Shown here one piece after another: positions 3,202 through 36,428 of a DNA stretch of 64,000 bases. A model generated the notes under the pieces. It was given only the letters and a program-made list of their open reading frames with translations, was not told where the DNA came from and ran no database searches. The stretch is from a virus. Lineage: Duplodnaviria > Caudoviricetes. Made by a program: the position numbers and the translations under genes. The DNA lies in IMG/VR virus record IMGVR_UViG_3300028805_000048; one strand, 5' to 3'. Positions within the stretch are counted from its first letter, which is position 1. The number at the start of each line of letters is the position of its first letter.

Positions 3202-3753
3202 ATGGTTATGACGTCAGAAGTTAAAGAAGTAGTTTTAAGTACATGGAAAAGAATATATGAAGCTTGGAAAAACCATAATCTTAAATCATTAGATGAATAT
3301 GATTTAAGATATCGTATTATTGCTTTTCATACTTTCCATGAGATAGTAGATTCTTATGCTGATTGGATAGCACACAATGGTAAGAAAATAGATTGTGCTC
3401 CAGATACTCAGAAGATATATAAAGATTGTTATGAATGTACATATCGTACTCTCAAAATAGAGAAAGAAGAAAAGATGCGTCAAGTTATCTGTCAGTACAA
3501 TAATTCCATGGATGAAGTCCTTGAAGAATTTGGTATAGGTCGTATTACTTATGGTAATAACATATCTTATAGAGTAACAAATCTAAATAAGTTTTTCTTA
3601 AAAGTATGGGATGAGTATTTAGACAAACGTATCCAAGAACTTGGTATCAAAGGTCTTAAACTTAAAGATAGAAAGAAAGTAACTTGTAATTCACACGAGT
3701 TATTTGATTTCAAAGATGCTGAATTTGGTGTAACTGAAACTAAGGAGGAATGA
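3202..3753 (+). CDS. Hypothetical protein
   Basis: 183 aa ORF with RBS. Confidence 0.7.
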   Translation: MVMTSEVKEVVLSTWKRIYEAWKNHNLKSLDEYDLRYRIIAFHTFHEIVDSYADWIAHNGKKIDCAPDTQKIYKDCYECTYRTLKIEKEEKMRQVICQYNNSMDEVLEEFGIGRITYGNNISYRVTNLNKFFLKVWDEYLDKRIQELGIKGLKLKDRKKVTCNSHELFDFKDAEFGVTETKEE

Positions 3754-4049
3754 CTATGGAAAATAATTCCGATATAGAAAAGCTTAAAAATTATCTTGAA
3801 AAAAGAATTAACAATGAACTTCGTGACCTTCATGCTAGTTATTTTGTTAAAATTGAAAAAAATTTATATAATAAGTTTTGGCGTATTAAAGTATATCCTG
3901 TAATAAATGAAAGACAAAATGTTGAATTTGGTTATTGTGCATTAGAAGATATATTAAGTGAAAACAATGTGACTAAAATGTTAGGTGAGTTTACTGTTGA
4001 TGAATTGAATAACTATATAACTCTATTAAAAATGAAAGGAGAAATTTAA
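3750..4049 (+). CDS. Small protein, C-terminal LxTxxKMKG motif family
   Basis: Ends NNYITLLKMKGEI. Confidence 0.75.
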   Translation: MTMENNSDIEKLKNYLEKRINNELRDLHASYFVKIEKNLYNKFWRIKVYPVINERQNVEFGYCALEDILSENNVTKMLGEFTVDELNNYITLLKMKGEI

Positions 4050-4064
4050 TAATTAGAAATTAAT

Positions 4065-4096
4065 GGCTTTACTTTATCTAATAAGTAGTTTATTTT
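4065..4096 (+). promoter_or_regulatory. Sigma70-like early promoter
   Basis: GGC-TTTACT-N17-TATTTT. Confidence 0.65.
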
Positions 4097-4121
4097 AATA
4101 ATCATTGAAAGGAGAAAACAT

Positions 4122-4808
4122 ATGGCTTTAAGCGATGAAATAGAAGCAAAGCAAAGAGCTAAAGATCTTTTTAATAGTCTTTGGGATAAAGCTTCTGAAG
4201 ATGAACGTAGATATTTAATACAGCATACTCTAGATACAGAAGGTCCTGATGCTGTTAAAGAATTATTTAGTCCAGCGTTTGTAGGAATAGTTGAAAGTAT
4301 GATTACTGCTGTTCCAGCTAAAGAAGAAGTAAAAGAAAATGAACCTAAAATATCATTGAATGGGATACCTGTAACTCTTGATCAATTGAAAGAAATATTA
4401 CCTTCTCATGAATGTGATGAAGATGGTAATGAAATCTATGTCAAAGAAGAATATCTTAAAGTAGATGATTCTGTTGACAAAGACAATACTTATGTTGTTC
4501 TTGGTTGGATGGATTGGCCAGGTGGTGAATCATTCATTAAAGATATAGATTTAAATAATCTTAAAGCTCAAATTGACAATGGAATTCGTGATTCAGAAGT
4601 TTTAATAGCTAACATTGAATTAACTGATGAAGCTTCTGATGGAGGTTTCTTACAAGCTAAACATTTTACAAAAAATGAAGCAGAAGATATTGTCAATCTT
4701 TTGAATAGTGTAACATGTACTGACACAGCAAATCCAATAATGCTTGGTGAAAATGATAACGCTGCTATTAGTATAGCAGATTATCTTAAAGAAGCCAATA
4801 GTATTTAG
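4122..4808 (+). CDS. Acidic hypothetical protein
   Basis: 228 aa ORF with strong RBS. Confidence 0.75.
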   Translation: MALSDEIEAKQRAKDLFNSLWDKASEDERRYLIQHTLDTEGPDAVKELFSPAFVGIVESMITAVPAKEEVKENEPKISLNGIPVTLDQLKEILPSHECDEDGNEIYVKEEYLKVDDSVDKDNTYVVLGWMDWPGGESFIKDIDLNNLKAQIDNGIRDSEVLIANIELTDEASDGGFLQAKHFTKNEAEDIVNLLNSVTCTDTANPIMLGENDNAAISIADYLKEANSI

Positions 4809-4865
4809 ATATTGTTTATTATTATGTTTTTGTTTTAATTTAATTTTATTGAAAGGAAATATATC

Positions 4866-5276
4866 ATGTTTAATGTAATTCGTAAAAATGGTTCTCAAAT
4901 CAAAGCTTCTTTTAAAACAGAAGATGAAGCTAAACAGTTTTTAGCTGATATGGGAATGCAGCGTAACTTCTTTAAAGTCGAAGAAGTAAAAGAACCTGTA
5001 TCCACAAAGAAAAAGATTTCAGTATCTTCTATAAGCGATGATGTATTCACAGATGCTGTAGAGATTACAAGAGCTAACGTTAAATACTTTTATAAGAAAG
5101 AAGGTCTTATTCGCGTTGTAAATCAGAATGGTAAAGTACTACATACTGGTAAGACAACTAATATGGGTAAGGTCTTTAGTAACTACGTAAATTGTGCAAG
5201 ATATAATCAATCATATGATTTTAATCTTGAAGGTGGAGACAGATTATTCTTTAAAGAAATGTCTCTTGAATCATAA
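4866..5276 (+). CDS. Hypothetical protein
   Basis: 136 aa ORF with RBS. Confidence 0.75.
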   Translation: MFNVIRKNGSQIKASFKTEDEAKQFLADMGMQRNFFKVEEVKEPVSTKKKISVSSISDDVFTDAVEITRANVKYFYKKEGLIRVVNQNGKVLHTGKTTNMGKVFSNYVNCARYNQSYDFNLEGGDRLFFKEMSLES

Positions 5277-5295
5277 TTTAAGATAATAAAATTTA

Positions 5296-5398: not shown

Positions 5399-5692
5399 AT
5401 GGCACTTTTAGATACATATAAACCAATGCAAGAATACATTACAAATTATCTTAATTCAAAGACTGGTTTTAATTTTAAGATTGTTGTTTTTAGTAAACTT
5501 AATCGAATTGCGATATGTATTGATTGTTATGATTCTAACAAGCCTTTTAACTATTTTATAGAGAAACTTCAAGAATTAAAAATAGACTTTGTAATTGAAC
5601 CAAACAATGGTTTTGAAGATGAGTATATTACATTAACAGAAGATGAATATCTTAAACTATATACTTCATGTAGTTTACAAAATAAACTTTAA
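5399..5692 (+). CDS. Small protein, C-terminal motif family (divergent)
   Basis: Ends YLKLYTSCSLQNKL. Confidence 0.7.
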   Translation: MALLDTYKPMQEYITNYLNSKTGFNFKIVVFSKLNRIAICIDCYDSNKPFNYFIEKLQELKIDFVIEPNNGFEDEYITLTEDEYLKLYTSCSLQNKL

Positions 5693-5701
5693 AAAAGAGA
5701 G

Positions 5702-6040
5702 GTGATGATCATGTGGCTTACATATACTACTGGTTTACGTGAAGAAGATAGATTATGTAGATCTGCTAATCAATTATTCTTTAATGTTACAAATATGCCA
5801 ACAGATGTTTTTAGACGTGGTACAAGATATACTGATTGTATTAGTAATCCAAATATGTTTGTGATCATACCTGGTTATTGTAGTACAGAAACAATGAAAA
5901 TCTGTGCTGTTCAGCAATTAAGAAGCAGAATATATAATGAGTGTGGAATGCTTCTTGGAGGAAGTGAAACAGCTTTTCTTGAATGTACAAAAGAACAGCT
6001 TGAAGAAATATTAACTGTCTTTAAAATGAAAGGATACTGA
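5702..6040 (+). CDS. Small protein, C-terminal motif family
   Basis: Ends EEILTVFKMKGY. Confidence 0.75.
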   Translation: MMIMWLTYTTGLREEDRLCRSANQLFFNVTNMPTDVFRRGTRYTDCISNPNMFVIIPGYCSTETMKICAVQQLRSRIYNECGMLLGGSETAFLECTKEQLEEILTVFKMKGY

Positions 6041-6041
6041 T

Positions 6042-6404
6042 ATGGATGACAAAGATTATGTTATAAAGAAATGGTATCTTAATAATGATGGTATTTCTTT
6101 AACAATATATTTTAGAAGAAACGATATATTTTATGGATTTAATTGGTCAATGAAATTAGGCTTTGATTACTTATCAGGTAATATTATATTTCCTGCATCT
6201 AATTTTGGTTGTGTTTCTTCTGAAGCTGGAACATATAGAAAACATCACACTAAAGAAGAAACTGAAAATTTCTATAAAGAATTATTAAATCATATGGATA
6301 TTACCGAATACGAATATCATGATGGAGATAAACCTTATTGTATTATAAGTACAGATGTTTATAAAAATCTTTTAACTATCTGGAAAATGAAAGGAAGGTG
6401 TTGA
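6042..6404 (+). CDS. Small protein, C-terminal motif family
   Basis: Ends KNLLTIWKMKGRC. Confidence 0.75.
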   Translation: MDDKDYVIKKWYLNNDGISLTIYFRRNDIFYGFNWSMKLGFDYLSGNIIFPASNFGCVSSEAGTYRKHHTKEETENFYKELLNHMDITEYEYHDGDKPYCIISTDVYKNLLTIWKMKGRC

Positions 6405-6405
6405 T

Positions 6406-6726
6406 ATGACTGGTAAAGAATTTGAAGCTTGTGTTTTGTTAGAAAATGTTTTTCATCAAACACTGCGCACTATATGTCCCGATATTTCTCAACATCATTA
6501 TGATATACTTACAGACGATTGTGATGAATACATAAAATTTAAACTTTATGTTAGTGGAGGATTTAAACAAGTATGGTATTCACGAAAATTAATTCAATAT
6601 TTAAATAAAGAATTAAGTGGTATACATATGGATTATGATAAAGATAATTATCTCAAAGGATTTCTCATTAAAAGAAAAGATATTTATAATGTTGTAACAT
6701 ATTACAGAATGCGAGATGTAATATGA
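6406..6726 (+). CDS. Small protein, C-terminal motif family
   Basis: Ends YNVVTYYRMRDVI. Confidence 0.7.
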   Translation: MTGKEFEACVLLENVFHQTLRTICPDISQHHYDILTDDCDEYIKFKLYVSGGFKQVWYSRKLIQYLNKELSGIHMDYDKDNYLKGFLIKRKDIYNVVTYYRMRDVI

Positions 6727-7016
6727 ATATATATAAATTTAAAATGAGTATTAATAAAACCATTTGTGCTGTTGTAAGCCATCGCATATTATCTTTTTAT
6801 ATACAAAAGAGCTTTGATGATATTGGATATTTAACTTGGGATAATAATATTCGAGGTTTTAAATTATATTATCAAAACGAAGATAATAAAATGGATTTGT
6901 TAGCTTTTTTAGAAACAATTTGTGGTATACAAACTAAATATGATTCATACAACGTATGGATTACTTACGAAGATTATTTAAATCTTTTAACATTTCTTAA
7001 ATTGAAAGGAGAATAG
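6723..7016 (+). CDS. Small protein, C-terminal motif family
   Basis: Ends LNLLTFLKLKGE. Confidence 0.75.
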   Translation: MNIYKFKMSINKTICAVVSHRILSFYIQKSFDDIGYLTWDNNIRGFKLYYQNEDNKMDLLAFLETICGIQTKYDSYNVWITYEDYLNLLTFLKLKGE

Positions 7017-19746: not shown

Positions 19747-19828
19747 GTTTTCTTTATTTCCTTAAATAATGATATGATATAGAACTTTATAATTAACAAA
19801 TTAATTTAATATATAAACATATTTTAAT

Positions 19829-19860: not shown

Positions 19861-19933
19861 ATAATTATATTAATTAATGAAAAGATTTTATAATGCAATT
19901 AAGTTATTTAAGAAAAAGAGGGATTGACGAATA

Positions 19934-20245: not shown

Positions 20246-20249
20246 TAAT

Positions 20250-20576: not shown

Positions 20577-20577
20577 T

Positions 20578-20609
20578 GGCTTTACTTTATCATTTGTATA
20601 GCTTATAAT
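20578..20609 (+). promoter_or_regulatory. Sigma70-like early promoter
   Basis: GGC-TTTACT-N17-TATAAT. Confidence 0.75.
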
Positions 20610-20635
20610 ATAATTATAGTTTAAATGAGGAATAT

Positions 20636-20977
20636 ATGATATTACGAAATTTTGATATACACGTTAAAAATTTATTAAAAAGTGAATTTCCTAAATGTGA
20701 ATTCGTTGTACACATTTATACACATAAAGATTCTGGATTTGTAACTAGAGGTTATCATATAGTAACTAAAAATACTAATATCTATGAAATTAGAAATTTT
20801 GCAAGAAAATATCCATATTTCGATGGTGTAGTAGGAAATCCATTTCTAAATTATTCTCAACATGATCTCGAAGAATCAATTGTTGTACCTGATTATATTA
20901 TGCTTAAAAAAGAATATAACAATCATGAAAGTATATGTAATTTAGTTACTTTATGGAAGATGAAAGGACTTTTGTAA
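20636..20977 (+). CDS. Small protein, C-terminal motif family
   Basis: Ends CNLVTLWKMKGLL. Confidence 0.75.
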   Translation: MILRNFDIHVKNLLKSEFPKCEFVVHIYTHKDSGFVTRGYHIVTKNTNIYEIRNFARKYPYFDGVVGNPFLNYSQHDLEESIVVPDYIMLKKEYNNHESICNLVTLWKMKGLL

Positions 20978-21588
20978 TGTTTGCTCAAATTAACGATTTA
21001 GATTATATAAAGTATTTAGATGGTGTACGTAAAGAATTTAAATTAACATCATCTAATTATATACTTGATATTGAAGAATGGGAAAATAAAGAATTCACAT
21101 TATATGTTTGGGATAGAAAAGGAAATGATAGTAGATATGCTAAAAGTATAATTCAAAAGACTGGAAGTAAACTTGTTGAAAAATTAGAATTTCTTAAAGA
21201 TAGACAATGTGATGCTCATTGGGTAATTCCGAAAGATTTATATAATTATTTTCTTAATAAAGGTGAAATTACAAAAGCTGGTTTAAGAAGTCTTATAGAA
21301 AGGTATTTAGAATCAGAAATTAGAGAAAATCTTAATTTAAAATCATTTGCAACATATGATATGATATGGATAGATGAAATGTTTTATTATAAAAACTATA
21401 ATGAATTTAAAAATGATTATCTTTGTATGAATCTTCAATACACAAGTGAGAATAAAATTAAACGGATAATAGATTTTTTAAAAACTAATTACAATATAGA
21501 ATACATAAAAACTGAAAAAGAAAAATCTTGGTTTAAAATAAACGATATTGATATGGTTTATACATTAATTAAATTAAAAAATGGATAA
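20977..21588 (+). CDS. Protein of C-terminal motif family (double length)
   Basis: Ends DMVYTLIKLKNG; TAATG coupling to the previous gene. Confidence 0.7.
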   Translation: MFAQINDLDYIKYLDGVRKEFKLTSSNYILDIEEWENKEFTLYVWDRKGNDSRYAKSIIQKTGSKLVEKLEFLKDRQCDAHWVIPKDLYNYFLNKGEITKAGLRSLIERYLESEIRENLNLKSFATYDMIWIDEMFYYKNYNEFKNDYLCMNLQYTSENKIKRIIDFLKTNYNIEYIKTEKEKSWFKINDIDMVYTLIKLKNG

Positions 21589-21598
21589 GGAATAAATA

Positions 21599-21940
21599 AT
21601 GTTTTCTGAAAAAGTATCAGAAGAAATATGTTTTAAGCATGAACAAGCAAATCATTTTTGTCTCGCTGTTTTAGAACAAGTACATTTAACACCATATATT
21701 TTGAATAATATAATTAATATTGATTACAATAATAATATTCCTGGTCTTATTATCGTTTTTAAAGAAGAAATAATAGATTTTATATATTATGAAATAAGAA
21801 AATTATACAGAGATAAAAATTTGATTAATTATTTTAATTGGAAAAGATTTAATAAATCGATACACATTGATTTGAAAAAAGAATACATAAATAAACTAGA
21901 AGAATTAGAGACACTTTTTAAAATGCAAAATATATTTTAA
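21599..21940 (+). CDS. Small protein, C-terminal motif family (HExANxFCL subfamily)
   Basis: Ends EELETLFKMQNIF. Confidence 0.75.
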   Translation: MFSEKVSEEICFKHEQANHFCLAVLEQVHLTPYILNNIINIDYNNNIPGLIIVFKEEIIDFIYYEIRKLYRDKNLINYFNWKRFNKSIHIDLKKEYINKLEELETLFKMQNIF

Positions 21941-21954
21941 TGGAGATAATATAA

Positions 21955-22290
21955 ATGACATTTAAATATTTTAATCAAATGATTGAATTGCTGTATTTAA
22001 TCGTGGAAATAAATTTTAATAATAAAAATGGATTTATAACAAAATTAGGATTTTTATATACATATACAGAATATATTCGTGATAGAAAACATAATGGTGC
22101 GTGTGAAAATTGTAAACAACTATATAACAAATTTAATGAATATTTAAAAAATAAAGGATTTGATAAATACATTCGTGTTAGATATCCTTATATGAATTCA
22201 GAAAGAAAAATTGCAATAGATTTCAATGAAAAAATAGATATGAATGCTGAATTAGAATTTATAACACTTTGTAAACTATATAATATATGA
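21955..22290 (+). CDS. Small protein, C-terminal motif family
   Basis: Ends LEFITLCKLYNI. Confidence 0.7.
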   Translation: MTFKYFNQMIELLYLIVEINFNNKNGFITKLGFLYTYTEYIRDRKHNGACENCKQLYNKFNEYLKNKGFDKYIRVRYPYMNSERKIAIDFNEKIDMNAELEFITLCKLYNI

Positions 22291-22302
22291 AAGGAATATA
22301 TA

Positions 22303-22962
22303 ATGCTTATAGTTGATAATACGAAAAAATTAAAAGACATCATAGAATTTAAAGACGGTACTTATTACAAGTTTGTATGTCTTTTAAGAACTAAAGATTA
22401 TAAAGATTCTGATGAAGAACCAATGCTTAAGTGCATGGAGAAGCAAGAAATTCTTGTTAAAGACTGGTTGATCGATAGTCAAGAAATGTTAGATAAAACT
22501 TTACCTGACATGCTTAAATTTACAGAAACATTTAAATGCAGACTGTATATGTGTACAGATAGAAAATCTGTTGTGAAGACTTTAAAGACTATGCGAGATA
22601 TAGTACAGAATTATCTTGATCCTTTTATTGGTAATTCTAATGTGAATTGTTCTGTGAGAGCAATTAAGAAAATTTGTTCTTCTGCCACAAATAAAAGTGA
22701 ATCATCTGATAGAGAAGGAAGAAAATGGTTATTTGATGTTGATTCAAAAGCAAATATTAATATATTAAATGATTTAGATAAAGTCTTGAAAGATAAACTT
22801 TTAGCTAAATTAGAAACAAAGAATGGTTATCATTATATCACGAAGAAAGATTTTGATGCTTATAAAGTTTTAGAAGATTTGTGTTATATTTATAATCGTG
22901 TTGGAGAAGATTTTCCTGTTGAATTAAAAGATAATGCTATGACTTTGATAGCAATGGGATAA
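22303..22962 (+). CDS. Phage protein, possible AEP (primase-polymerase) superfamily
   Basis: WLFDVD and TKNGYH resemble AEP motifs I and II. Confidence 0.4.
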   Translation: MLIVDNTKKLKDIIEFKDGTYYKFVCLLRTKDYKDSDEEPMLKCMEKQEILVKDWLIDSQEMLDKTLPDMLKFTETFKCRLYMCTDRKSVVKTLKTMRDIVQNYLDPFIGNSNVNCSVRAIKKICSSATNKSESSDREGRKWLFDVDSKANINILNDLDKVLKDKLLAKLETKNGYHYITKKDFDAYKVLEDLCYIYNRVGEDFPVELKDNAMTLIAMG

Positions 22963-22967
22963 AGACA

Positions 22968-23303
22968 ATGGTGTATGATATGAGAGATGCTTTAAAATGC
23001 AATGACAAGATGTACTTAGTTTTAAACGATCTTTTAAAACAAGTTAATCGTTATTCGAATGATGGAAATACATATGATAATGTTATTCACTATCAATATC
23101 TTACATATTCACATTTACAAATATATAGTGAAATAGTAAGACAATGGTTTAATAAATATGAATTTTTAAAAGAATATTTTGAATTAGAAATTACTCCTTC
23201 TATTTATGATTTAAAAATATACATGAAGGAAGAATATTTTAACGAAGAAACGTTGGATAATATCATAACTGTCATGAGGATAAAAGGAATGATTGAAGAA
23301 TAA
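22968..23303 (+). CDS. Small protein, C-terminal motif family
   Basis: Ends DNIITVMRIKGMIEE. Confidence 0.75.
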   Translation: MVYDMRDALKCNDKMYLVLNDLLKQVNRYSNDGNTYDNVIHYQYLTYSHLQIYSEIVRQWFNKYEFLKEYFELEITPSIYDLKIYMKEEYFNEETLDNIITVMRIKGMIEE

Positions 23304-23341
23304 AAAAACTCCAATCTAATTAAAGAAAGGAGCTAGTTTTT
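23302..23341. terminator. Bidirectional terminator, inverted copy of 16779-16804
   Basis: 26 nt perfect reverse-complement match. Confidence 0.7.
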
Positions 23342-23364
23342 ATTTTTACAAATTTAAATATTAA

Positions 23365-24111
23365 TTATTTATTTAGATAATCATAATCAGCATTTTGGAA
23401 ATCATATTCTGGTTCAATATGATTATAATGTGATGTACTCACAAACTCATTTCTATCTAAATTTTTATTTCTTTCGCCAGACAAATACATATCAGCATCA
23501 TATAATAAATCTTTTACTTTTTTTAATTTTTTATTATCTTCATATTCACGATATAAGTCATATGCAATCACATAAACATCTTGAACCTTTCTCATAAGAT
23601 TCCAAAATCTATCATCGTGTTTCATTTGATCGTTATCCATATCATAATCTATAGCTTGTAATAAACCAGGATTACCATCATCCTCTTCTAATTTTTCTAC
23701 AGCTTCTCTAAAAGACTTAATATATTTGTTAGAAAATTTATCTTTATTATTGACACTTTCATATAAAGAATTAATCCAATAATTATAATATTCTGGTGTA
23801 AATTCTCCACCATCATTGCTAAGATCGAGATATTTTTTTATATCATTAATATCATAACCTGTTTTAACTACAAGTTTCGTACGAAGTAAGTATCTAGAAT
23901 ATTCATCTAAAGTTTTATAAAATTTTAAAAAAGCACGTAAATCACGGGTAGCAGAATAACCATCGCTATTATCGTAACCTAACTGATCAAGTCGACTTTG
24001 TTCACCTTCTATTTCACCCTTATCATTTTTAATAGGATGTAATTCGAAGATATTCTCTATTTTATGTATCGCTTTATTTATGTAACTTGTATCCAATTTC
24101 TTTTTTTCCAT
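23365..24111 (-). CDS. Putative internal head polyprotein with an internal leader A copy
   Basis: Internal NKYIKSFREAVEKLEE; AGTTCTA at 24158-24164. Confidence 0.6.
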   Translation of the reverse strand: MEKKKLDTSYINKAIHKIENIFELHPIKNDKGEIEGEQSRLDQLGYDNSDGYSATRDLRAFLKFYKTLDEYSRYLLRTKLVVKTGYDINDIKKYLDLSNDGGEFTPEYYNYWINSLYESVNNKDKFSNKYIKSFREAVEKLEEDDGNPGLLQAIDYDMDNDQMKHDDRFWNLMRKVQDVYVIAYDLYREYEDNKKLKKVKDLLYDADMYLSGERNKNLDRNEFVSTSHYNHIEPEYDFQNADYDYLNK

Positions 24112-24173
24112 AATTTCTCTATTCCTTATAGACGTATAAAATATTAACTTTGATAATTAGAACTTACATAAAA

Positions 24174-24204
24174 GCTTTACTTTTTTGTTTTAATACTATA
24201 TATT
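24174..24204 (+). promoter_or_regulatory. Sigma70-like early promoter
   Basis: GC-TTTACT-N17-TATATT. Confidence 0.6.
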
Positions 24205-24242
24205 TAATAAATATAAAGGAGTATTTATGAAAGGATACGATT

Positions 24243-24599
24243 GTGATTTATAAAGGAATTAGTATAGTTGATTTACTTTTTTATTTATTATATGATTTAT
24301 TTGAAATATATAAATATAAACATTTTTTATATATTGCTTGTGAAAATAAATCAATAAGTTTATGTGCAGATAAATATTTTAAGCAATTTAAAACAAATAT
24401 GAAAGATTTTAAAAACAATTTAATCGAATGTATTAATAAAAATGAATATGATAAATTGTTAATAATAAACTTTAACAATTTTGATGAAACACATGAGATT
24501 GTTTATGGAGATACATTATGTAATATATCATTAAATTTAGAGAATGAAAATAAAATTGATCAATTAATTACTTTATATAAAATAAAGGAATATTTATAA
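24243..24599 (+). CDS. Small protein, C-terminal motif family
   Basis: Paralog of 24920; ends DQLITLYKIKEYL. Confidence 0.75.
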   Translation: MIYKGISIVDLLFYLLYDLFEIYKYKHFLYIACENKSISLCADKYFKQFKTNMKDFKNNLIECINKNEYDKLLIINFNNFDETHEIVYGDTLCNISLNLENENKIDQLITLYKIKEYL

Positions 24600-24600
24600 T

Positions 24601-24927
24601 ATGTTTGAATTTATATTAAACGGAATGTTTAAAGATTTTTCTTTAATAAAAGAAGGTATTGTTTCTATATATAATTCACCAAACGAAATTCGCATGATCG
24701 CACAAGAATGGATTAGTAGATATTATATTGAATATGAAGTAAATAATTATTTAGAAGAAAAAGGTTTTGAAAATTATATACATATGATATATCTTATTAA
24801 TACAGATTCTCATACTATATATAAATCTGGAGAAGTGATAGCTGAAATTAGATTGAGTCATGAAGGAATAAGTAAATGTCAAGAATTAGAAACCTTATTT
24901 AAGATGGAAGGACTTTGCTATGTATGA
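24601..24927 (+). CDS. Small protein, C-terminal motif family
   Basis: Ends QELETLFKMEGLCYV. Confidence 0.75.
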   Translation: MFEFILNGMFKDFSLIKEGIVSIYNSPNEIRMIAQEWISRYYIEYEVNNYLEEKGFENYIHMIYLINTDSHTIYKSGEVIAEIRLSHEGISKCQELETLFKMEGLCYV

Positions 24928-25288
24928 TGGTAGAGAAATACGTTATAGCGATTTGCTTTTATGTATGTTAAAGGATTTTAAACCAAATGGAAATAATCAC
25001 TTTATATTTCTTAATACTTATGATGAATTAATAAGTATATGTGCAGATGCTTATTTTGATGATAAATATATTAAAATGACTATGAAAGTGTTTAAAAACG
25101 AATTAATGAAATATCTTCATCAAAATGGATATATGGAAGTATTAATAATACATTTTAACTTCGCTGATGAAAATCATAAAATTTTTGCAGCTGATATGCT
25201 TTGTGATATATCATTCAACGAAGAAAAGGAAGATGAAATTAATCAAATCGTTACTGTTTTGAGAATGAAAGGATTAATTAATGCTTAA
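24920..25288 (+). CDS. Small protein, C-terminal motif family
   Basis: Ends NQIVTVLRMKGLINA. Confidence 0.75.
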   Translation: MYDGREIRYSDLLLCMLKDFKPNGNNHFIFLNTYDELISICADAYFDDKYIKMTMKVFKNELMKYLHQNGYMEVLIIHFNFADENHKIFAADMLCDISFNEEKEDEINQIVTVLRMKGLINA

Positions 25289-25514
25289 ATTAAATTATAA
25301 TCAAAAAGTATCACTTAAATATCTTAGAAGATTAGTTAAACCATGTAAATGCTGTGGAAATACTAATCCTCGTTTTGATAATCTTAGAGGATGGACAAAT
25401 GTAACAATTGTTTGTAATAAATGTTGGAAACAAAAAGCCGTTAGATCAACTGTTGAAGAAGCAATAGAAGCTTGGAATAAATTAAATAGAGAAGATCAAT
25501 CATGTCATATGTAA
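25281..25514 (+). CDS. Lar-like zinc-ribbon protein (restriction alleviation family)
   Basis: KPCKCCG...VCNKC...EEAIEAWN. Confidence 0.65.
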   Translation: MLKLNYNQKVSLKYLRRLVKPCKCCGNTNPRFDNLRGWTNVTIVCNKCWKQKAVRSTVEEAIEAWNKLNREDQSCHM

Positions 25515-25927
25515 ACGAATTGATAGAAAATAAAGATTATCAAGAGATAACAAAAGCTTTAAATATTTTACGTGACATTATTCAATTAAAAGGGTTAGAA
25601 ATTACGGATAGAGCAATTTCTATTTCTCAGTCATTTGAAGATTGTAATATAGAATTTTCTGTTTATGCTAAGAGTAGTTCTGATAATGTCAAAAGTGGTT
25701 TTACTGTTGTTGGTAGTTATGATTATTGCTTATCAAATAAATTATACAGACATATAAAAAAGTGTTTAAAAGAAACTGGATTAAACAAGTATTTAAGAAT
25801 TCATCCTAAAAGTTTTAGTTCAACAGCATCTTTAGAATGTATATTTTTTTATGTTTTAGAAATAAAAAGAACGTTAACGAAAACACAATTTTATGAATTA
25901 ATGACATATGGAAATCTTTATAAATAA
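25502..25927 (+). CDS. Protein with divergent C-terminal motif
   Basis: Ends YELMTYGNLYK. Confidence 0.65.
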   Translation: MSYVNELIENKDYQEITKALNILRDIIQLKGLEITDRAISISQSFEDCNIEFSVYAKSSSDNVKSGFTVVGSYDYCLSNKLYRHIKKCLKETGLNKYLRIHPKSFSSTASLECIFFYVLEIKRTLTKTQFYELMTYGNLYK

Positions 25928-25933
25928 TAGAAA

Positions 25934-25969
25934 AATGGCTTTACTTAATCAAAGTAAAGCCATTATAAT
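25934..25969 (+). promoter_or_regulatory. Early promoter inside a 13 bp perfect inverted repeat
   Basis: aatggctttactt-aatca-aagtaaagccatt overlapping TATAAT. Confidence 0.65.
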
Positions 25970-26031
25970 ATAGATATAATTAAAATAAAAATATTATTGT
26001 ATTATTTCAACGTTAAAGAAAGGAAAATATC

Positions 26032-27177
26032 ATGAAAGAAATTGAAAATCTGACAAGAAATATAGAAACCTTGTCTTATAAAGAACTCAAAGAAGCTTTA
26101 AATAAATTAACAACTTATGATTCTAAAGAAATAACAAGATTGAAAGAGAATGCAGTTTTGAGAGCTGAATATATTAAAGAATTAGAAAGTAAAAGTAATA
26201 AAACTCAAGAAGATAAAAAACTTTTAGAAATAGCTAAAGATGAATATTTTAAAACATCATTGGTATTAAATCATTATAACTATATGATTCCTACAACATA
26301 TACTCAAGCTGATTGGTTGGTATATTATTGTCATATATCAATGCCAAAAGAGCAATTTGATACTTTAGTTACAAAAGCCAATGAGATGTTAACTGATTAT
26401 ATGACAATGCATAAAGACGTTATGTATAAAGAAAATAGAAAACTAAAATTAACAATGGAAGAATGTGTTGAAGGTGCATTAAATAATCCTATAAAAGAAA
26501 CATTACGTAAATATGGTAAAGAATTAGTAAAATTAAGTCTTGAAAGAAAAATAATTGAAGAAAGATATAAACCTGAAGATTTAAAAAGTATTATTGTACA
26601 AACAGAACGTAAACGTGCATTAATGAGTGTAAATAAAAAATTTATAACTTTATCTCAAGAAAGATTAAATCTTAAAAAAGATCATGATGAAACAATTATG
26701 TGTACAACAGCTTATTGGTTTGAGCAAGTAATTTATAAATATTGTCCACAAGATGAATCTAGTAAATTATTTACAGGTGCCAAACGCTATTATCATATTA
26801 ATATTGATAAAATGACTAAAAGAAAAATCATTTCCGAAACAATTAAAAAGAAAACTGATAATAAACAAACAATTAGTAAAAAAGAAACAAAACAAAAAGA
26901 AGTTGTTAAAGAAATAGTAGAAAAGAAAGTAGAAAAAGAAATAGAATGTCCTTTGAGTAAAACTACAGATGAATTGATTTCTTTATCTGAGAAATATAAA
27001 GACTTCTTAAAGCAGAAAGATGAATTAGAAAAACAAATCTTTTCAAAAGTAAAATTTGTTTATAACAAATTAGATTCAAACAAAGATGGCATGACTAAAG
27101 ACGATTTTATTGATTTTGTAGAAGACATTTTTGATATTCCATCTGGAACAATAAATAGAAAACTGAAAGGATTATAA
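26032..27177 (+). CDS. Hypothetical helical Lys/Glu-rich protein
   Basis: 381 aa ORF with strong RBS. Confidence 0.8.
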   Translation: MKEIENLTRNIETLSYKELKEALNKLTTYDSKEITRLKENAVLRAEYIKELESKSNKTQEDKKLLEIAKDEYFKTSLVLNHYNYMIPTTYTQADWLVYYCHISMPKEQFDTLVTKANEMLTDYMTMHKDVMYKENRKLKLTMEECVEGALNNPIKETLRKYGKELVKLSLERKIIEERYKPEDLKSIIVQTERKRALMSVNKKFITLSQERLNLKKDHDETIMCTTAYWFEQVIYKYCPQDESSKLFTGAKRYYHINIDKMTKRKIISETIKKKTDNKQTISKKETKQKEVVKEIVEKKVEKEIECPLSKTTDELISLSEKYKDFLKQKDELEKQIFSKVKFVYNKLDSNKDGMTKDDFIDFVEDIFDIPSGTINRKLKGL

Positions 27178-27519
27178 ATGAGTATTATTTATCAAATTTC
27201 ACAAAAAGATAGGTTTATAATTAAATTATTCAACAATATATTCAATAGTGTTTTTAATAAAATGAATTTTAGTTTTAGATATACAAAAATAGCGAATTAT
27301 CAAGAACCTTCATTAGGTATACATTTGAATAAATTTGATAAAGTATCAATTAAAGATTTTTATAAACTTCATCAAGAAATATTAAATTATTTAAATAAAA
27401 ATTTATTTGATAATCAAATTTATATAAGTAATATAAATACTAATTTTTATTTTAAACTTTATTTAAAACATGAATTGTCTGACAATTTGATTACGTTTTT
27501 TAAAATGAAAGGATTGTGA
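27178..27519 (+). CDS. Small protein, C-terminal motif family
   Basis: Ends DNLITFFKMKGL. Confidence 0.75.
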   Translation: MSIIYQISQKDRFIIKLFNNIFNSVFNKMNFSFRYTKIANYQEPSLGIHLNKFDKVSIKDFYKLHQEILNYLNKNLFDNQIYISNINTNFYFKLYLKHELSDNLITFFKMKGL

Positions 27520-27836
27520 TTATGAGTGAAGAGAAAGTTTTAGGTAGACCTTGTAGAATGGCTGGAATGAGCCATATTTATATTATTGATAGTTTATGGT
27601 ATACACATTCTTTATATCCAAGTATTTATGGATCAACTGGTGATTTTAATTTTGTTACAATCGGTGTTGTTAAAACATATGACACAATTACAAAGGAATA
27701 TAAAACATATATTGGTGTTGGTAAAGGCGACGATATGGAAATGGATGAAGATAGAATTGCTGGATGTGGAACAAGTTTTACTAATCCTGTAAGTTTCGAT
27801 GATATGAAAACTTGGTTAAAAATGAAAGAAAAATAA
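27516..27836 (+). CDS. Small protein, C-terminal motif family
   Basis: Ends DDMKTWLKMKEK. Confidence 0.75.
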   Translation: MIMSEEKVLGRPCRMAGMSHIYIIDSLWYTHSLYPSIYGSTGDFNFVTIGVVKTYDTITKEYKTYIGVGKGDDMEMDEDRIAGCGTSFTNPVSFDDMKTWLKMKEK

Positions 27837-27839
27837 ATA

Positions 27840-28154
27840 ATGATTTTCTATACAGAGTTTAAAAATAGAATGAAACTAAGTGAGTTTTTATATGAAATTT
27901 TTTATAAAGAAAATTGTATTAGATATCAAATATCATTGATTTTACCTGGTTGTATAAAATTTAATTATTTACAGCAATACCAAATACATAGAATTGAAGA
28001 AATTTTAAAAAATGTTTATTTATATGATTATTTTGAAATCTATCAATCAAATGATCGTAAAAAAATGGTTGTTGAATTAAAAAATGAATATAACAATGAA
28101 GAAAAGGTAGAAAATATTATATTAATTCTCAAATTAAAAGGATTATTTTTATAA
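27840..28154 (+). CDS. Small protein, C-terminal motif family
   Basis: Ends ENIILILKLKGLFL. Confidence 0.75.
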   Translation: MIFYTEFKNRMKLSEFLYEIFYKENCIRYQISLILPGCIKFNYLQQYQIHRIEEILKNVYLYDYFEIYQSNDRKKMVVELKNEYNNEEKVENIILILKLKGLFL

Positions 28155-28192
28155 AACTCACGATTTCAAAAATTGCAAAGGGTAATAAATTA

Positions 28193-28549
28193 ATGATTAA
28201 TTATAAAAAATATGATGAAATAGTTAGAATGTTGAACAATTTAGTGAATAAATATTTTCCTAAAGAAAATGATTCTATCGATTCACCTGTTTTTATTGTT
28301 CAAAACTGTTTAAAATATTCAGAAAAAACACTTGCTAGTGTACCTACATATATATGGTTTAAAGTTTATAATAACAATGACGTTTTTGCTTTTTATAATC
28401 CAAAGAATAGAAAAGAAACAGTGGAGTATTTCATAAATAATTGGAATTTTATATGTCAAGAAGAAAATTATACACGTAGAAAATATATTACCTTTAAAGT
28501 AAATGATGTTGATGAATTATATATGTCATTAAAATTATTAATTTCTTAA
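28193..28549 (+). CDS. Small protein, C-terminal motif family (divergent)
   Basis: Ends DELYMSLKLLIS. Confidence 0.7.
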   Translation: MINYKKYDEIVRMLNNLVNKYFPKENDSIDSPVFIVQNCLKYSEKTLASVPTYIWFKVYNNNDVFAFYNPKNRKETVEYFINNWNFICQEENYTRRKYITFKVNDVDELYMSLKLLIS

Positions 28550-28628: not shown

Positions 28629-28991
28629 ATGAAATTGCGTCAAGGAGATATAGTTTATATACAAAAAGAAGACAATAGTGATCCAGATAAGTGGCATAAA
28701 TCTAATGAAATTTATGTTATAAGAGATCAAAGTGAACAATCTGTACATTTAAAAGTAACACATAAAATAAGTGATGATGATTTTGTTGAATATAAAGAAT
28801 TAATATATGCTAAATTGAGTAAAATATTTTTATATTTTGCCGGTTATGGAAGAATGAAAGAATTAGATTATTTAGAATTAAATTTAATTTGCGCAGAATT
28901 AGAAATACCAAGTCAAGTCGTTGAAAAGTTTGTAAACGTCTGTAATGGTGAAAAGATTAATAAAAGCAAAATACATTATGTATACCTATAA
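28629..28991 (+). CDS. Small protein, second C-terminal motif family
   Basis: LDYLEL...LEIPSQVVEKFVNVCN. Confidence 0.75.
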   Translation: MKLRQGDIVYIQKEDNSDPDKWHKSNEIYVIRDQSEQSVHLKVTHKISDDDFVEYKELIYAKLSKIFLYFAGYGRMKELDYLELNLICAELEIPSQVVEKFVNVCNGEKINKSKIHYVYL

Positions 28992-29014
28992 AACTATTTA
29001 TGAGGAAATAAAAA

Positions 29015-29356
29015 GTGACAATGTTAGCTGATAAATACTTTCAAATAAGACCAGATTTCAGAATAGAATTGTTTGGTAATGATAACCAAGGTTGGGGTGA
29101 TGGTAGAATATTTTTAACTGGTACAAAAATATTAGATGATAGTCTACGCTTAGTAGAAAATCAATATACGTTTATATATGATATATATCAAAATAGTTAT
29201 AAACTGCGTTTATATAATAACATTGACAATAGTCAAGTATTAGATTATTTTCAAACATTAATTGAACTTAAAAAATTCAATATACCAGACGAAATCGGTA
29301 ATGAATTTTTAGAATTGTGCAATAAAGCTCGTTCTGATTTAATTATAGTTAAATGA
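29015..29356 (+). CDS. Small protein, second C-terminal motif family
   Basis: LDYFQT...FNIPDEIGNEFLELCN. Confidence 0.75.
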   Translation: MTMLADKYFQIRPDFRIELFGNDNQGWGDGRIFLTGTKILDDSLRLVENQYTFIYDIYQNSYKLRLYNNIDNSQVLDYFQTLIELKKFNIPDEIGNEFLELCNKARSDLIIVK

Positions 29357-29383
29357 GGCAATGCTTATTAAAGGTTATAAAAA

Positions 29384-29713
29384 ATGACTATACGAATACT
29401 TGATACAGATATAATCTTTCACGATAAAAAAGAAAAAAATCGTTTATTGATGATTAGAAAAACATATATTAAATTATATGATACATACGTTATATATCTT
29501 ATGAGCTTATATAAGCATACTTGTTATGGATATAGACAAGAATTTGAAATAATGAAAAATAATGAAAATGCTTATTGTTTAAATTTTCCTAGTTTAGGAA
29601 GAATTTACACTTTTGATTATTTAGAAATATTGTTAAAATCACAGCAGATGAATATACCTGATAATGTGATGAATGAATTTATAAATATCTGTAACAAATA
29701 TCATAATAGATAG
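29384..29713 (+). CDS. Small protein, second C-terminal motif family
   Basis: FDYLEI...MNIPDNVMNEFINICN. Confidence 0.75.
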   Translation: MTIRILDTDIIFHDKKEKNRLLMIRKTYIKLYDTYVIYLMSLYKHTCYGYRQEFEIMKNNENAYCLNFPSLGRIYTFDYLEILLKSQQMNIPDNVMNEFINICNKYHNR

Positions 29714-32896: not shown

Positions 32897-32898
32897 TT

Positions 32899-32951: not shown

Positions 32952-33518
32952 ATGCTAAAAGATTTTATTTTAAACTTAACAAAAGCTGAATATAAAATTA
33001 ACCTTTTAATGCTTGGAAAAAAAGAAGCTTTAAAAGATAATAAATATTGTCTTTTTTCATTAACTGGACAAGAATGGCGAAATTGTTCTATTTTATCATA
33101 TACTGATTCTAGACAATTTGTTTCTGAAAAAGAAATAGTAGAATTATTTGAAGATAAAATAGAAAAAATATATCCTTCTCTTTGTAAAGTTGGATATTAC
33201 GATTTTGATAAAACAGGAATCTGTGGTATATATGAAGATAAACTCAGTGACTTTGTAAAAGATATTGAATTACCAAAAGAATACGAATATTTGCTCATAA
33301 AAAGATTTTTACAAGGATATCTTACTTTAACTTTAAATTCTACAAATACACTCACGCCAACTTTCAAACTAAGAAAAGCTTGGACAGATATAAATGATAT
33401 AAAAAGAATAGAAAAAGAATATCTTCTAAAACTTGTTAAAGAAACAGAATATGATTATGAATTAAAGATTTGTGAACCAGATGGTCTTCTTGGATTATTA
33501 ATGATGAAAGAAGACTAA
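32952..33518 (+). CDS. Hypothetical protein with divergent C-terminal motif
   Basis: Ends DGLLGLLMMKED. Confidence 0.7.
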   Translation: MLKDFILNLTKAEYKINLLMLGKKEALKDNKYCLFSLTGQEWRNCSILSYTDSRQFVSEKEIVELFEDKIEKIYPSLCKVGYYDFDKTGICGIYEDKLSDFVKDIELPKEYEYLLIKRFLQGYLTLTLNSTNTLTPTFKLRKAWTDINDIKRIEKEYLLKLVKETEYDYELKICEPDGLLGLLMMKED

Positions 33519-34187: not shown

Positions 34188-34219
34188 GGCTTTACATGAT
34201 AAATGCAATATGATATTAT
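34188..34219 (+). promoter_or_regulatory. Sigma70-like early promoter
   Basis: GGC-TTTACA-N17-TATTAT. Confidence 0.65.
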
Positions 34220-34248
34220 TTATTATATTTGATGTAAAGGAATTTGTC

Positions 34249-34557
34249 ATGGGTCGATACACATTAAAAACTGCTAAAAATAAACATAAAAAAGAATTTT
34301 CTTGTGTTGAAAAATGGGATGGTGAAAGTGGTGATGTATTTTCAATAGAAATAATTGGTAATAATTTAAAAGATACATATATTTCGTATGACGTGTATCA
34401 TGATTTTATCATATCTATCAATAAAGATAAATCGTTACGTTATGAGCATTTCGATTTGTTAAAGCTGTTAGTATTTATAGAGATGTATGATATTCCTAAA
34501 AAAGTCGTAGAAAAATTTATTTCAAAAATAACAGCTATAAGACAAAAAATTAACTAA
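34249..34557 (+). CDS. Small protein, second C-terminal motif family
   Basis: FDLLKL...YDIPKKVVEKFI. Confidence 0.7.
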   Translation: MGRYTLKTAKNKHKKEFSCVEKWDGESGDVFSIEIIGNNLKDTYISYDVYHDFIISINKDKSLRYEHFDLLKLLVFIEMYDIPKKVVEKFISKITAIRQKIN

Positions 34558-34618
34558 AGGTTTTACAATTTACTTCATGCATGGATAGTTAATATATAAA
34601 TTTAAAAAGAGATTAATC

Positions 34619-34936
34619 ATGATAACAGATCATATATACAAATACAAATCAGGTAAAACTTATCACATCGGCTATATTCCAAATATATATTTATATATTG
34701 AAATACGTAACAATAAATTTGTTGAATATTTCATTGATTATGATGCTTTACACATTGATAAAAAAATACATTGTAGGAAATATGATGAAAGTGTATGCAG
34801 TTTTATAATAGATGGTGTATTTTGTTTTGATTTCATGTTGATTGTTTATAAATTGGCTAAATTAAATATTCCAAAAAGAGTATCAAACGCCTTTTTGAAA
34901 AAAGCGCAAGAATTAAATCAATGTTTAAAAGGGTAA
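34619..34936 (+). CDS. Small protein, second C-terminal motif family
   Basis: FDFMLI...LNIPKRVSNAFL. Confidence 0.7.
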   Translation: MITDHIYKYKSGKTYHIGYIPNIYLYIEIRNNKFVEYFIDYDALHIDKKIHCRKYDESVCSFIIDGVFCFDFMLIVYKLAKLNIPKRVSNAFLKKAQELNQCLKG

Positions 34937-34941
34937 TTTGA

Positions 34942-35307
34942 ATGCATAGAATTAATTTTAAACTTCATTATCCTCAATACGATATATCTGAAATATCAGA
35001 TTATATAGTATTTAAAAATTTGATTTTAGATAATAAAGATAAACCGATTATATACAAAAATGATGAAATATATATAAATGATGATTGTACACGTTTATCG
35101 ATTTCATATACTATTTACGGTATGGATATGATGGTGCAAGAGAGTATAGAAGAAGCTATTAATAGAATAAAATATTATATAGTATTAAATGGTTTAGATG
35201 AATACATTAGTGTAAAACAAGATTATGAAACAAATATCATTTTACAATTTTTTGTAAAAAATATAAATGAATTGAAAGTAGATTTTAAATTGAGAGGAAT
35301 AATATAA
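34942..35307 (+). CDS. Small protein, C-terminal motif family
   Basis: Ends NELKVDFKLRGII. Confidence 0.7.
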   Translation: MHRINFKLHYPQYDISEISDYIVFKNLILDNKDKPIIYKNDEIYINDDCTRLSISYTIYGMDMMVQESIEEAINRIKYYIVLNGLDEYISVKQDYETNIILQFFVKNINELKVDFKLRGII

Positions 35308-35609
35308 TGAAAAAATTTACAAATGAACAAATATTTGAATTTCTTATGTTAATTTCTGAAGAATTAAAAGTGTTTATTCCATTTTCTAAAAGAATGGAAA
35401 TTTATCGTTTATATAAAGAAACATATTCTGAAAAGAGTACACCAAATATTAGATTACCTAAATATATATTAAAAGGAATAAAAGAATCTGATATAAAAGA
35501 TTTTGAAAACAAATATGGTTTAATGGTACTCAATAGCTATAATTATGATTTTATAATGTTTTTAGATTTTGATAATTTTTTCACATTTCTAAAATTGAAA
35601 GGTAAATAA
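35307..35609 (+). CDS. Small protein, C-terminal motif family
   Basis: Ends DNFFTFLKLKGK. Confidence 0.75.
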   Translation: MKKFTNEQIFEFLMLISEELKVFIPFSKRMEIYRLYKETYSEKSTPNIRLPKYILKGIKESDIKDFENKYGLMVLNSYNYDFIMFLDFDNFFTFLKLKGK

Positions 35610-36091
35610 TGTTGACGAAAGATGACGAATACATAATGATTGTACACGGTACATTAGGTAGAAAATTTATTAGATGGCTATCTAAACGTTGTGATGTGTT
35701 TGAAGTCAATAAAGTCTGTGATCATGCCATTAGATATGGTGTATATAATGATACAAAAAGATATTCTGATAAAAAGGTTATCGAAAATTTAAAATATAGT
35801 AGACCATACGTTATTAGATTTGAGTTAAATGAAGATATGAAAACTGTACTTCTTTTAGCAGGAATTAATTTAGAGAAATATATCAACGATATGTGGTGTC
35901 CAATATATATAAGTCACAATGCACCATATGGACGAAAGAATATGCGTAAATATTATGGAGCTGCTAATCGTAAAGATTTATGTATAGCAATATTAGCGTA
36001 TTGGTCTCATTCACACCCTAGATGTTTTCCTCATGATATAATTTATTATCATGATAGAAAGAAAGGAGTAGAAAATGGAAACATGGATTGA
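35609..36091 (+). CDS. Hypothetical protein
   Basis: Internal EDMKTVLLLAG resembles the family motif. Confidence 0.7.
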   Translation: MLTKDDEYIMIVHGTLGRKFIRWLSKRCDVFEVNKVCDHAIRYGVYNDTKRYSDKKVIENLKYSRPYVIRFELNEDMKTVLLLAGINLEKYINDMWCPIYISHNAPYGRKNMRKYYGAANRKDLCIAILAYWSHSHPRCFPHDIIYYHDRKKGVENGNMD

Positions 36092-36428
36092 AAACTTAGA
36101 TCATAAAATGCTTATGAATATAATGTTAAATAAGTATTTACTTGATAAAGTAAAAGAAGCTTTAGAAGTAGTCGATGTTGGACATTCTTATAAAGAAGAT
36201 CAAACGTTTCAACTTTGGATAGAATTACGCAAATTACCTAGTAAATCTGATTTACGTGTTAAAGCTATAATCAGAAATATAGGATTAGATAGATATATGA
36301 AAGTAAATTTTAACATAGATAAAAACTATTTATATATTGTATTTAATCTAGATCCAAATTTGACAAAAGAAGACATGGAATCTATATCCGGTATTCTACT
36401 TTTGCTAGGATATGGAAATAATATATAA
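36075..36428 (+). CDS. Small protein, divergent C-terminal motif
   Basis: Ends ESISGILLLLGYGNNI. Confidence 0.7.
   Translation: METWIENLDHKMLMNIMLNKYLLDKVKEALEVVDVGHSYKEDQTFQLWIELRKLPSKSDLRVKAIIRNIGLDRYMKVNFNIDKNYLYIVFNLDPNLTKEDMESISGILLLLGYGNNI

Follow-up and report, generated by a model that had tools for sequence, protein, structure and literature searches.

Phage genomes rarely keep dozens of paralogs. Eukaryotic viruses have multigene families of adaptors that share a constant C-terminal motif, such as the poxvirus ankyrin/PRANC F-box-like proteins and the F-box and BTB expansions of giant viruses. The hyperplastic early regions of T4-type phages reportedly contain small early ORFans that are preceded by repeated early promoters. 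Here we describe a family of small proteins encoded in a 64,000-nucleotide (nt) stretch of the IMG/VR virus record IMGVR_UViG_3300028805_000048, hereafter the window. About 25-28 copies of ~100-120 amino acids (aa) lie within 33 kb, make up about a quarter of the open reading frames (ORFs) of the window and share a C-terminal strand-helix element, the tail. Genes and proteins are designated by their first position in the window. A bacterial virus with a comparable expansion is Bacillus phage G, in which a Zn-ribbon is present ~35 times (Iyer et al. 2021, PMC7824862).

As in phage G, where the Zn-ribbon expansion is thought to serve host conflict or regulation, the family consists of dozens of paralogs of one small domain in one large phage genome. 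Its fold differs from the Zn-ribbon and it has no metal ligands; unlike in phage G, its genes form tandem arrays with early-type promoters, the C-terminal strand-helix end doubles as a ribosome-binding site and the family occurs in an uncultured clade only. The likeness to the T4 hyperplastic regions includes a T4-like backbone (Gp23), small putatively early genes behind promoters with a GTTTAC-type -35 element, gain and loss between strains and one promoter placed in a stem-loop (25934-25964). However, the early ORFs of T4 are mostly unrelated singletons, whereas here a quarter of the window ORFs belong to one family. Many viral paralogs, variable bodies and a constant C-terminal element are shared with the PRANC and F-box families. 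The tails of these proteins are, however, independently folding helical domains of ~40-50 aa with a known hub (Skp1/cullin), whereas the element described here is one strand and one helix integrated in a ~110-aa domain, and the host is bacterial.

Related DNA was found in a close strain (contig L001 of an ENA assembly), in which the neighbouring genes are 90-99% identical, and in 13 related IMG/VR loci with a capsid identity of 69-89%, some of them on contigs 227-237 kb long. The window therefore comes from an uncultured jumbo phage of the T4-like type. Three near-complete relatives, G001, G002 and G003 (capsid identity 89%, 77% and 71%), were compared in full. On balance, we favour the view that the family has expanded in this lineage and consists of early binder proteins, probably directed at the host, in which the tail is the end of the fold and its final K-G has been shaped by a ribosome-binding site.

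The ORFs and C-termini listed in the original prediction, which had been made from the letters of the window alone, are all in place, and the shared tail is not an artefact of composition. A strict pattern, h-x-[TV]-h-h-[KR]-[LIVM]-[KQRE]-[GNE], scored in the C-terminal 16 aa of 114 non-overlapping ORFs, was found 16 times against 0.014 expected; 500 composition-preserving shuffles gave a mean of 0.014 matches and a maximum of 1. The pattern has 0 internal occurrences and 0 in 75 off-frame ORFs. A 24-position hidden Markov model (HMM) of the tail gives 17 C-terminal matches in the window, and a helix-core pattern without K-G finds 19. Ungapped alignment on the motif extends the conserved unit from the ~10 residues proposed initially to ~24 aa: an alternating hydrophobic beta-strand, an N-cap/acidic turn of the form [T/S/N/D]-x-x-[E/D] and an amphipathic helix, h-x-x-h-x-T-h-h-[KR]-h-x-[GN], ending in a G/N cap. 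After it come 0-4, once 8, variable residues. The helix core is also C-terminal in ORFs of ~100-120 aa of the related phages. In capped helices, an N-cap and acidic residues typically open the helix, positions i, i+3/4 and i+7 are hydrophobic, and a basic residue close to the C-end precedes a Gly or Asn C-cap. Read against these rules, most of the conserved positions of the tail look structural, the Thr being the one position that they do not readily explain. Among orthologues, conservation of the tail exceeds that of the body only modestly (68% versus 60%).

The bodies upstream of the tail had been described as mostly not alignable by eye, which holds for about 11 tail-only members and fails for about half of the family. 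BLAST alone links small groups end to end. A jackhmmer search from 21599 connects nine proteins of the window along most of their sequence (19934, 20250, 20636, 21599, 21955, 24601, 24920, 25502 and 27840), together with five relatives from G001 and the contig L012; 24243 and 22968 are added to this group, subfamily A, by BLAST, a body-only HMM and hhalign. On the evidence of these comparisons, at least 12 window proteins are homologous over most of their length. The alignment of subfamily A contains a common alpha1, beta1-beta2, alpha2, G-h-D-x-Y and beta3-beta4, and a second motif reads helix, G-[FLY]-[DE]-x-Y, strand. A profile without the tail still retrieves subfamily A, and its best out-of-sample matches are other tail-bearing proteins. 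Three further members, 36075, 34942 and, weakly, 3750, match the alpha2-beta3-beta4 profile above shuffles. The closest paralogs adjoin each other in the genome (19934/20250/21599 and 24243/24920).

Structure prediction indicates one fold for subfamily A. The reference member 21599 (21599-21940, plus strand; 113 aa, tail LETLFKMQN) was modelled with AlphaFold2 from a 33-sequence alignment, with a predicted local distance difference test (pLDDT) of 93 and a predicted template modelling score (pTM) of 0.83. The model has the order alpha-beta-beta-alpha-beta-beta-alpha (H4-27, E38-43, E49-54, H59-72, E79-83, E87-92 and H100-109) and ends in the tail helix, residues 100-109, with a pLDDT of ~95. 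For 27516, modelled with moderate confidence, the predicted N-terminal topology differs. The whole family may therefore vary structurally in the N-terminal half and keep a helix-strand-helix C-terminal end. Foldseek with the 21599 model returned nothing at E<=0.001 in PDB or BFVD. The ESM Atlas, in which the 21599 sequence is present, gave no strong match and its feature search no usable one. The neighbours that were listed are generic two-layer alpha-beta-beta x2 domains. Topology and two-layer packing resemble the permuted ferredoxin-like domains of GspL/EpsL, the periplasmic part of PilO, the SecD P1 base, RRF domain II and the HAD cap. Template modelling (TM) scores against the SecD P1 and GspL clusters are 0.55-0.60, a range of common arrangements, with no sequence similarity, and we read these neighbours of the model as such. 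Unlike 21599, these neighbours are domains of membrane or ribosomal proteins, mostly without a C-terminal helix. A LAGLIDADG homing endonuclease fold, nominally alike in topology, was considered and not retained: the I-DmoI rows have a probability of <=0.21 and a TM score of <=0.30, and a LAGLIDADG-like motif is not visible in the subfamily A alignment. A co-fold of two copies of 21599 (alignment A4) scored 0.00, which is no verdict and speaks neither for nor against binding.

The end of the tail has a second function at the level of DNA. The usual ribosome-binding site of the phage is (T)GAAAGGA: GAAAGGA is present within 22 nt upstream of 24 of the 114 genes, and TGAAAGGA upstream of 15. Read in frame, xTG-AAA-GGA encodes [M/L]-K-G, 5-10 nt ahead of an abutting downstream start; gene 20636, for example, carries AAAGGA 9 nt ahead of the next ATG at 20977. 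The sequence ATGAAAGGATAC also acts as a ribosome-binding site outside coding sequence, in the leader of 24243 (repeat D14). Three unrelated proteins outside the family likewise end in LKG(L), namely 26032-27177 (KLKGL), 34619-34936 (CLKG) and 54119-54463 (ILKGL), because the TGAAAGG site of the downstream gene lies in frame in their last codons. Among 49 tail-bearing genes of the window, G001 and G002, Gly stands at +3 in 14 of the 21 whose next gene lies within 5 nt, against 9 of the 28 whose next gene is >=10 nt away (Fisher p=0.022; p=0.003 for Gly or Glu), and in the latter group Asn is as common as Gly. G001 keeps the helix core LYTLxKh, mostly without K-G. The last three residues of the tail are substantially explained by this dual coding of a Shine-Dalgarno site. 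K-G is retained in three window genes without an adjacent downstream gene, 3750, 22968 (which no gene follows on its strand) and 27840; on the protein side a Gly cap must thus be tolerated or preferred, and the role in DNA reinforces it. At the junctions, identical bases encode a conserved protein C-terminus and serve as the ribosome-binding site of the next gene. This is a clear case of dual coding, and it calls for caution in motif-based inference in compact AT-rich genomes.

Comparison with the close strain gave omega values of 0.07-0.30 in five of six testable members, like those of neighbouring genes (5702, 0.20; 6042, 0.30; 6406, 0.11; 13442, 0.11), and of 0.75 in 5399. By this measure, the family members are real genes under purifying selection in five of the six cases. 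They also turn over between strains. Three members (3750, 6723 and 11382) are missing from the close strain, and 5399 and 6042 are 60% and 73% identical to their counterparts there, while the flanking genes are 90-99% identical. A recognisable orthologue in G001 exists for 6 of 28 members, compared with 25 of 43 other small genes, and none of the 28 has one in G002 or G003. The tail HMM still gives 14 C-terminal matches in G001 and 10 in G002, and about one in G003.

The distribution of the family is restricted. Subfamily A has only 26 representatives among 1.84e9 clustered proteins, all of ~100-120 aa and with the same tail. A search of 5.8e9 proteins with the alignment of all 28 members gave nothing except the strain copy of 6406, and a related-locus search with 20250 alone found none. 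In a Pfam scan of all 28 members, no family reached the cut-off and none was common to two members; the PHROGs yielded only 2 single stray matches, and the best E-value of profile A4 against PDB sequences was 0.44. The prediction of a large family without a name, constant in a C-terminal element and highly divergent elsewhere, is borne out: the family is new to all databases searched and is restricted to one uncultured phage clade.

The arrays begin with repeated promoter elements, as had been proposed. The element, 25-69 nt long, occurs at 19806-19869 (plus strand) as TGGCTTTACTT, a spacer of 17 nt and TATTAT/TATAAT, and belongs to repeat families D2, D5 and D8-D10; more copies start near 4066, 10141, 13148, 20579, 24174, 25938, 28558, 32900, 34189 and 36431. 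This element resembles the T4 early-promoter -35 box GTTTAC, and the candidate array promoters carry GGCTTTAC. These promoter-like repeats suggest an early expression of the arrays. A generic sigma-70 scan was uninformative in this AT-rich DNA (100 sites versus 91 expected). A 13-bp hairpin is present at 25934-25964: the -35 element AATGGCTTTACTT makes up its 5' arm, and the promoter spacer contains its 3' arm. This hairpin, which recalls the promoter/stem-loop cassettes of T4-type phages, may end the upstream array and also start the next.

The following scenario would account for these observations. The copies would have arisen mainly by local duplication in early-gene hyperplastic regions and diverged very fast. 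At least 12 members fold as a two-layer alpha-beta-beta-alpha-beta-beta sandwich closed by the C-terminal helix, and the shared tail, last strand plus closing helix, is the slowest-evolving piece of the domain; in the copies of this phage its terminal [ML]-K-G is additionally fixed by DNA, as the ribosome-binding site of the abutting downstream gene. The proteins would be made right after infection, and each would probably use its variable surfaces to bind a different host protein, either a defence protein or a target of takeover. The frequent gains and losses and the divergence between strains would then be signs of an arms race. The binding and anti-host role is our best guess, and we hold it with less assurance than the view of the family as a whole. 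The size of the expansion, the turnover between strains and the early-type promoters point to strong diversified selection, the most plausible source of which is a polymorphic host target or host defences. As both the phage and its host are uncultured, the practical value of the family is limited for now.

Several observations weigh against this view of the tail as the end of a single fold. The AlphaFold2 model of 27516 (pLDDT 74) has no N-terminal helix and contains long beta-strands (E21-31, E47-56, E61-69, H74-84, E86-88 and H94-105), and its weak structural neighbours are not those of 21599. For most neighbours of 21599 itself the alignment stops at residue ~93-99, which makes the tail helix an addition to the common core. 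Structure alone need not account for the conserved polar residues Thr and Lys, and the module also occurs inside larger proteins (39152 and 35609) and is therefore somewhat portable. Finally, no similarity beyond the ~24-aa module was detected for 5399, 5702, 6042, 6406, 6723, 11078, 11382, 20953, 27516, 28193 and 35307. The failure to link these ~11 tail-only members is weak evidence because the genes have only one to four homologues anywhere; their miss by body-only hhalign is weak as well, because the alignments are thin and even jackhmmer-linked members scored low.

The same observations bear on the adaptor library envisaged in the original prediction, in which a constant strand-helix tail would dock many target-binding bodies onto one hub, such as a phage or host AAA+/protease or another host machine. 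The conservation of the tail across paralogs with unalignable bodies, its presence in 27516 despite a different predicted N-terminal topology, its occurrence within larger proteins, its conserved polar Thr and Lys and its position outside the core common to most structural neighbours all agree with such a library. We nevertheless consider it unlikely, although a partner shared by the members with unalignable bodies is conceivable. Half of the family, at least 12 members, has one fold, of which the helix is an integral part and, in the model, the final element, placed with high confidence; the features of the motif fit helix capping and packing, and K-G is largely a by-product of the ribosome-binding site that is lost in G001. 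The constant part is one strand and a helix of ~10-12 residues within a ~110-aa domain, not an independently folding docking domain, and it exceeds the body only slightly in orthologue conservation. No candidate hub partner was found and none co-varies with the family. A MoxR-like gene and a DUF2201 metallopeptidase-VWA gene form a pair at 46-3141, adjoining the first array, and this adjacency remains the sole link between pair and family: the pair is conserved in G001, G002 and G003 (68-76% and 41-66% identity), although G003 is essentially without the tail family. The MoxR-like gene has no Pfam match at E<=0.001. The related idea of a portable 24-aa docking module on differing bodies (alpha/beta in subfamily A, beta-rich in the 27516 type, and the larger proteins with internal copies), which would recruit a library of early proteins to one common host or phage partner, seems to us improbable too; if true, it would be a bacterial-virus analogue of the adaptor multigene families of eukaryotic viruses.

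A mosaic origin would make the family partly an artefact of its gene junctions: a 3' cassette of tail codons, Shine-Dalgarno sequence and junction would spread by recombination between early genes and give unrelated ORFs a common C-terminus. T4-type phages are said to shuffle early ORFs at repeated promoter/stem-loop cassettes. The LKG(L) endings of the unrelated 26032, 34619 and 54119, derived from an embedded ribosome-binding site, would fit this mechanism, as would DNA repeats of 24-42 nt with 69-88% identity over the tails (D3, D7 and D16) and the fact that presence or absence in strains varies exactly at these junctions. Yet upstream of the ribosome-binding site the shared part continues for ~24 aa, in which synonymous and conservative differences are many and long identical DNA is absent; the strand-cap-helix pattern is retained at the protein level, and G001 and G002 keep the helix core without K-G or the Shine-Dalgarno sequence. 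We give this origin only a small chance. A C-terminal degron or sorting tag, recognised by a host Clp or Lon protease or used in export or packaging, would suit the C-terminal position and the hydrophobic-basic character of the tail, but is very improbable: the extreme C-terminus is not a conserved unstructured segment, being variable (0-4, up to 8 residues after the motif), the segment is predicted to be helical and ordered, signal-peptide or transmembrane features are absent, and the early-type promoters ahead of the genes make virion cargo unlikely. As for chance, by which AT-rich composition and ribosome-site overlap would produce the tail without any real family, the dependence of K-G on the ribosome-binding site is its one point of contact with the data. 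The shuffles and the empty internal and off-frame controls refute it for the helix core, and the full-length homology of about 12 members, the purifying selection and the same helix core in related phages leave it hardly any room.

All members described below are encoded on the plus strand. In the central arrays, subfamily A begins with 19934 (19934-20245; 103 aa, degenerate tail LEILLELQN), listed in the original prediction among the weaker members and now a full-length homologue of 20250 and 21599 (BLAST 1e-18; jackhmmer 1e-34). It is followed by 20250 (20250-20576; 108 aa, LKTLLKIRN), with a 61% orthologue in G001, and 20636 (20636-20977; 113 aa, LVTLWKMKG), which has the top tail-HMM score (29.6 bits) and a jackhmmer E-value of 7e-18 over HMM positions 26-112. 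The longer member at 20977-21588 (203 aa from ATG 20977; VYTLIKLKN) carries the family domain in its C-terminal ~90 aa, and its C-terminal half resembles a 102-aa member of G002 (4e-33). Beyond 21599 lie 21955 (21955-22290; 111 aa, FITLCKLYN; jackhmmer 1.6e-11 over HMM positions 52-112) and 22968 (22968-23303; 111 aa, IITVMRIKG), for which hhalign against the A profile gives a probability of 85% with the body only and 97% at full length.

Next come 24243 (24243-24599; 118 aa, LITLYKIKE; body HMM 3e-11), 41% identical to 24920; 24601 (24601-24927; 108 aa, LETLFKMEG; jackhmmer 4e-21); 24920 (24920-25288; 122 aa, IVTVLRMKG), linked by BLAST, jackhmmer and the body HMM; and the divergent 25502 (25502-25927; 141 aa), which has a degenerate tail, YELMTYGNLYK, and is tied to subfamily A through its body (jackhmmer 1.7e-8 in the mid-region; body HMM 7e-4). 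Downstream, 27178 (27178-27519; 113 aa, LITFFKMKG) probably has the A fold, as its hhalign alignment is co-linear over 99 columns (E 4e-5). The protein 27516 (27516-27836; 106 aa, likely start ATG 27522, MKTWLKMKE) has a beta-rich body and only 2 homologues among 5.8e9 proteins. The top structural match of its model, beta-strands followed by a C-terminal helix, is IraM (8twd_B), with PmrD lower; both are connector or anti-adaptor proteins of ~85-100 aa that act by partner binding, and 27516 is of similar size. Subfamily A also includes 27840 (27840-28154; 104 aa, IILILKLKG; jackhmmer 3e-19), 38 nt from the next gene. Its neighbour 28193 (28193-28549; 118 aa) is a weak member whose tail, ELYMSLKLLIS, scores 4.1 bits with the tail HMM and is like G001 tails such as DLYMICKMTEI.

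The remaining members lie on either side of these genes. In the first part of the window, 3750 (3750-4049; 99 aa, YITLLKMKG) lies 72 nt from the next gene, has a mid-region HMM p=0.025 and is linked to 11078. Five members stand in tandem at 5399-7016, namely 5399 (weak tail), 5702, 6042, 6406 (RMRD tail) and 6723; homology of the bodies in this run to subfamily A is not demonstrable by hhalign or the mid-region HMM. An adjoining pair, 11078 (FVLFHKMKG) and 11382 (LFTIFKIQN), occupies 11078-11726, and 13442 (13442-13792; 116 aa) ends in RITALKLLG followed by an 8-aa acidic extension. Further downstream are the 188-aa protein 32952 (32952-33518; tail LLGLLMMKED), without a tail-HMM match and with its own orthologues in G001 and the contig L011, the adjoining pair 34942 (KVDFKLRG; mid-region HMM p=0.01) and 35307 (FFTFLKLKG) at 34942-35609, and 36075 (36075-36428; 117 aa), with the degenerate tail ISGILLLLGYG and an alpha2-beta3-beta4 mid-region score of 9.8 bits that was reached by 0 of 200 shuffles. 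Among the members first listed as weaker, 25502 and 36075 are consequently linked by their bodies, as is 34942; 5399, 6406 and 28193 have degenerate but recognisable tails, as does 13442; and 32952 is doubtful. The two proposed internal copies fared differently. In the 188-aa protein 39152 (39152-39718) the module LNEIETLAKMSG spans about residues 30-55, is followed by another domain and is kept in the G001 and G002 orthologues, whereas the 160-aa protein 35609 (35609-36091) contains a weak strand-helix module, VIRFELNEDMKTVLLLAG, at about residues 68-90. The isoelectric points (pI) of the members range from 4.7 to 9.6, a mark of surface diversity; a DNA-mimic role was dropped on account of this span, which has no acidic bias.

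Other small expansions were noticed in the same DNA. A second paralog family (28629, 29015, 29384, 34619 and perhaps 34210) lies at 28629-29713 and 34210-34936, likewise in promoter-led arrays adjoining the family with KMKG-type endings; its similarity is limited to the C-terminal ~30-40 aa (BLAST 1e-7 to 6e-3). Another, linked by jackhmmer (up to 1e-41), is found at 42227-43191, at 28.6-30.3 kb of G001 and at 156.6 and 195.6-196.2 kb of G002. Several of its members contain an internal E-Y-x-T-L-L-K-L-N-x-x-D-Y-[KR], a tail-like helix followed by ~25-30 more residues.

The window as a whole has ~26% GC, and ARAGORN found 0 tRNA and 0 tmRNA genes in it. It encodes a Gp23-family T4-type major capsid protein, an anaerobic ribonucleotide reductase (NrdD), an NAD-dependent DNA ligase, a T4-type RNA ligase 1 (Rnl1), a PIF1-like helicase and the metallopeptidase-VWA protein. 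Capsid proteins of cultured phages reach at most 37% identity to that of the window, and megablast of 19900-28200 against cultured phages gave no match. At 16703-18031 of the close strain L001, in the interval from the 13442 homologue to the capsid gene, lies a 442-aa gene with a weak NUMOD3 match (homing-endonuclease-like), which the window does not have at this place. Minus-strand late genes at 16404-19746 and 23365-24111 encode two sets of proteins alike in their N-terminal ends only: 16404, 17644 and 23365 (up to 88% identity over 17 aa), and 16849, 18316 and 19192 (43-51% identity over 40-86 aa). These shared N-termini near the capsid gene are possibly common leaders on different late proteins.

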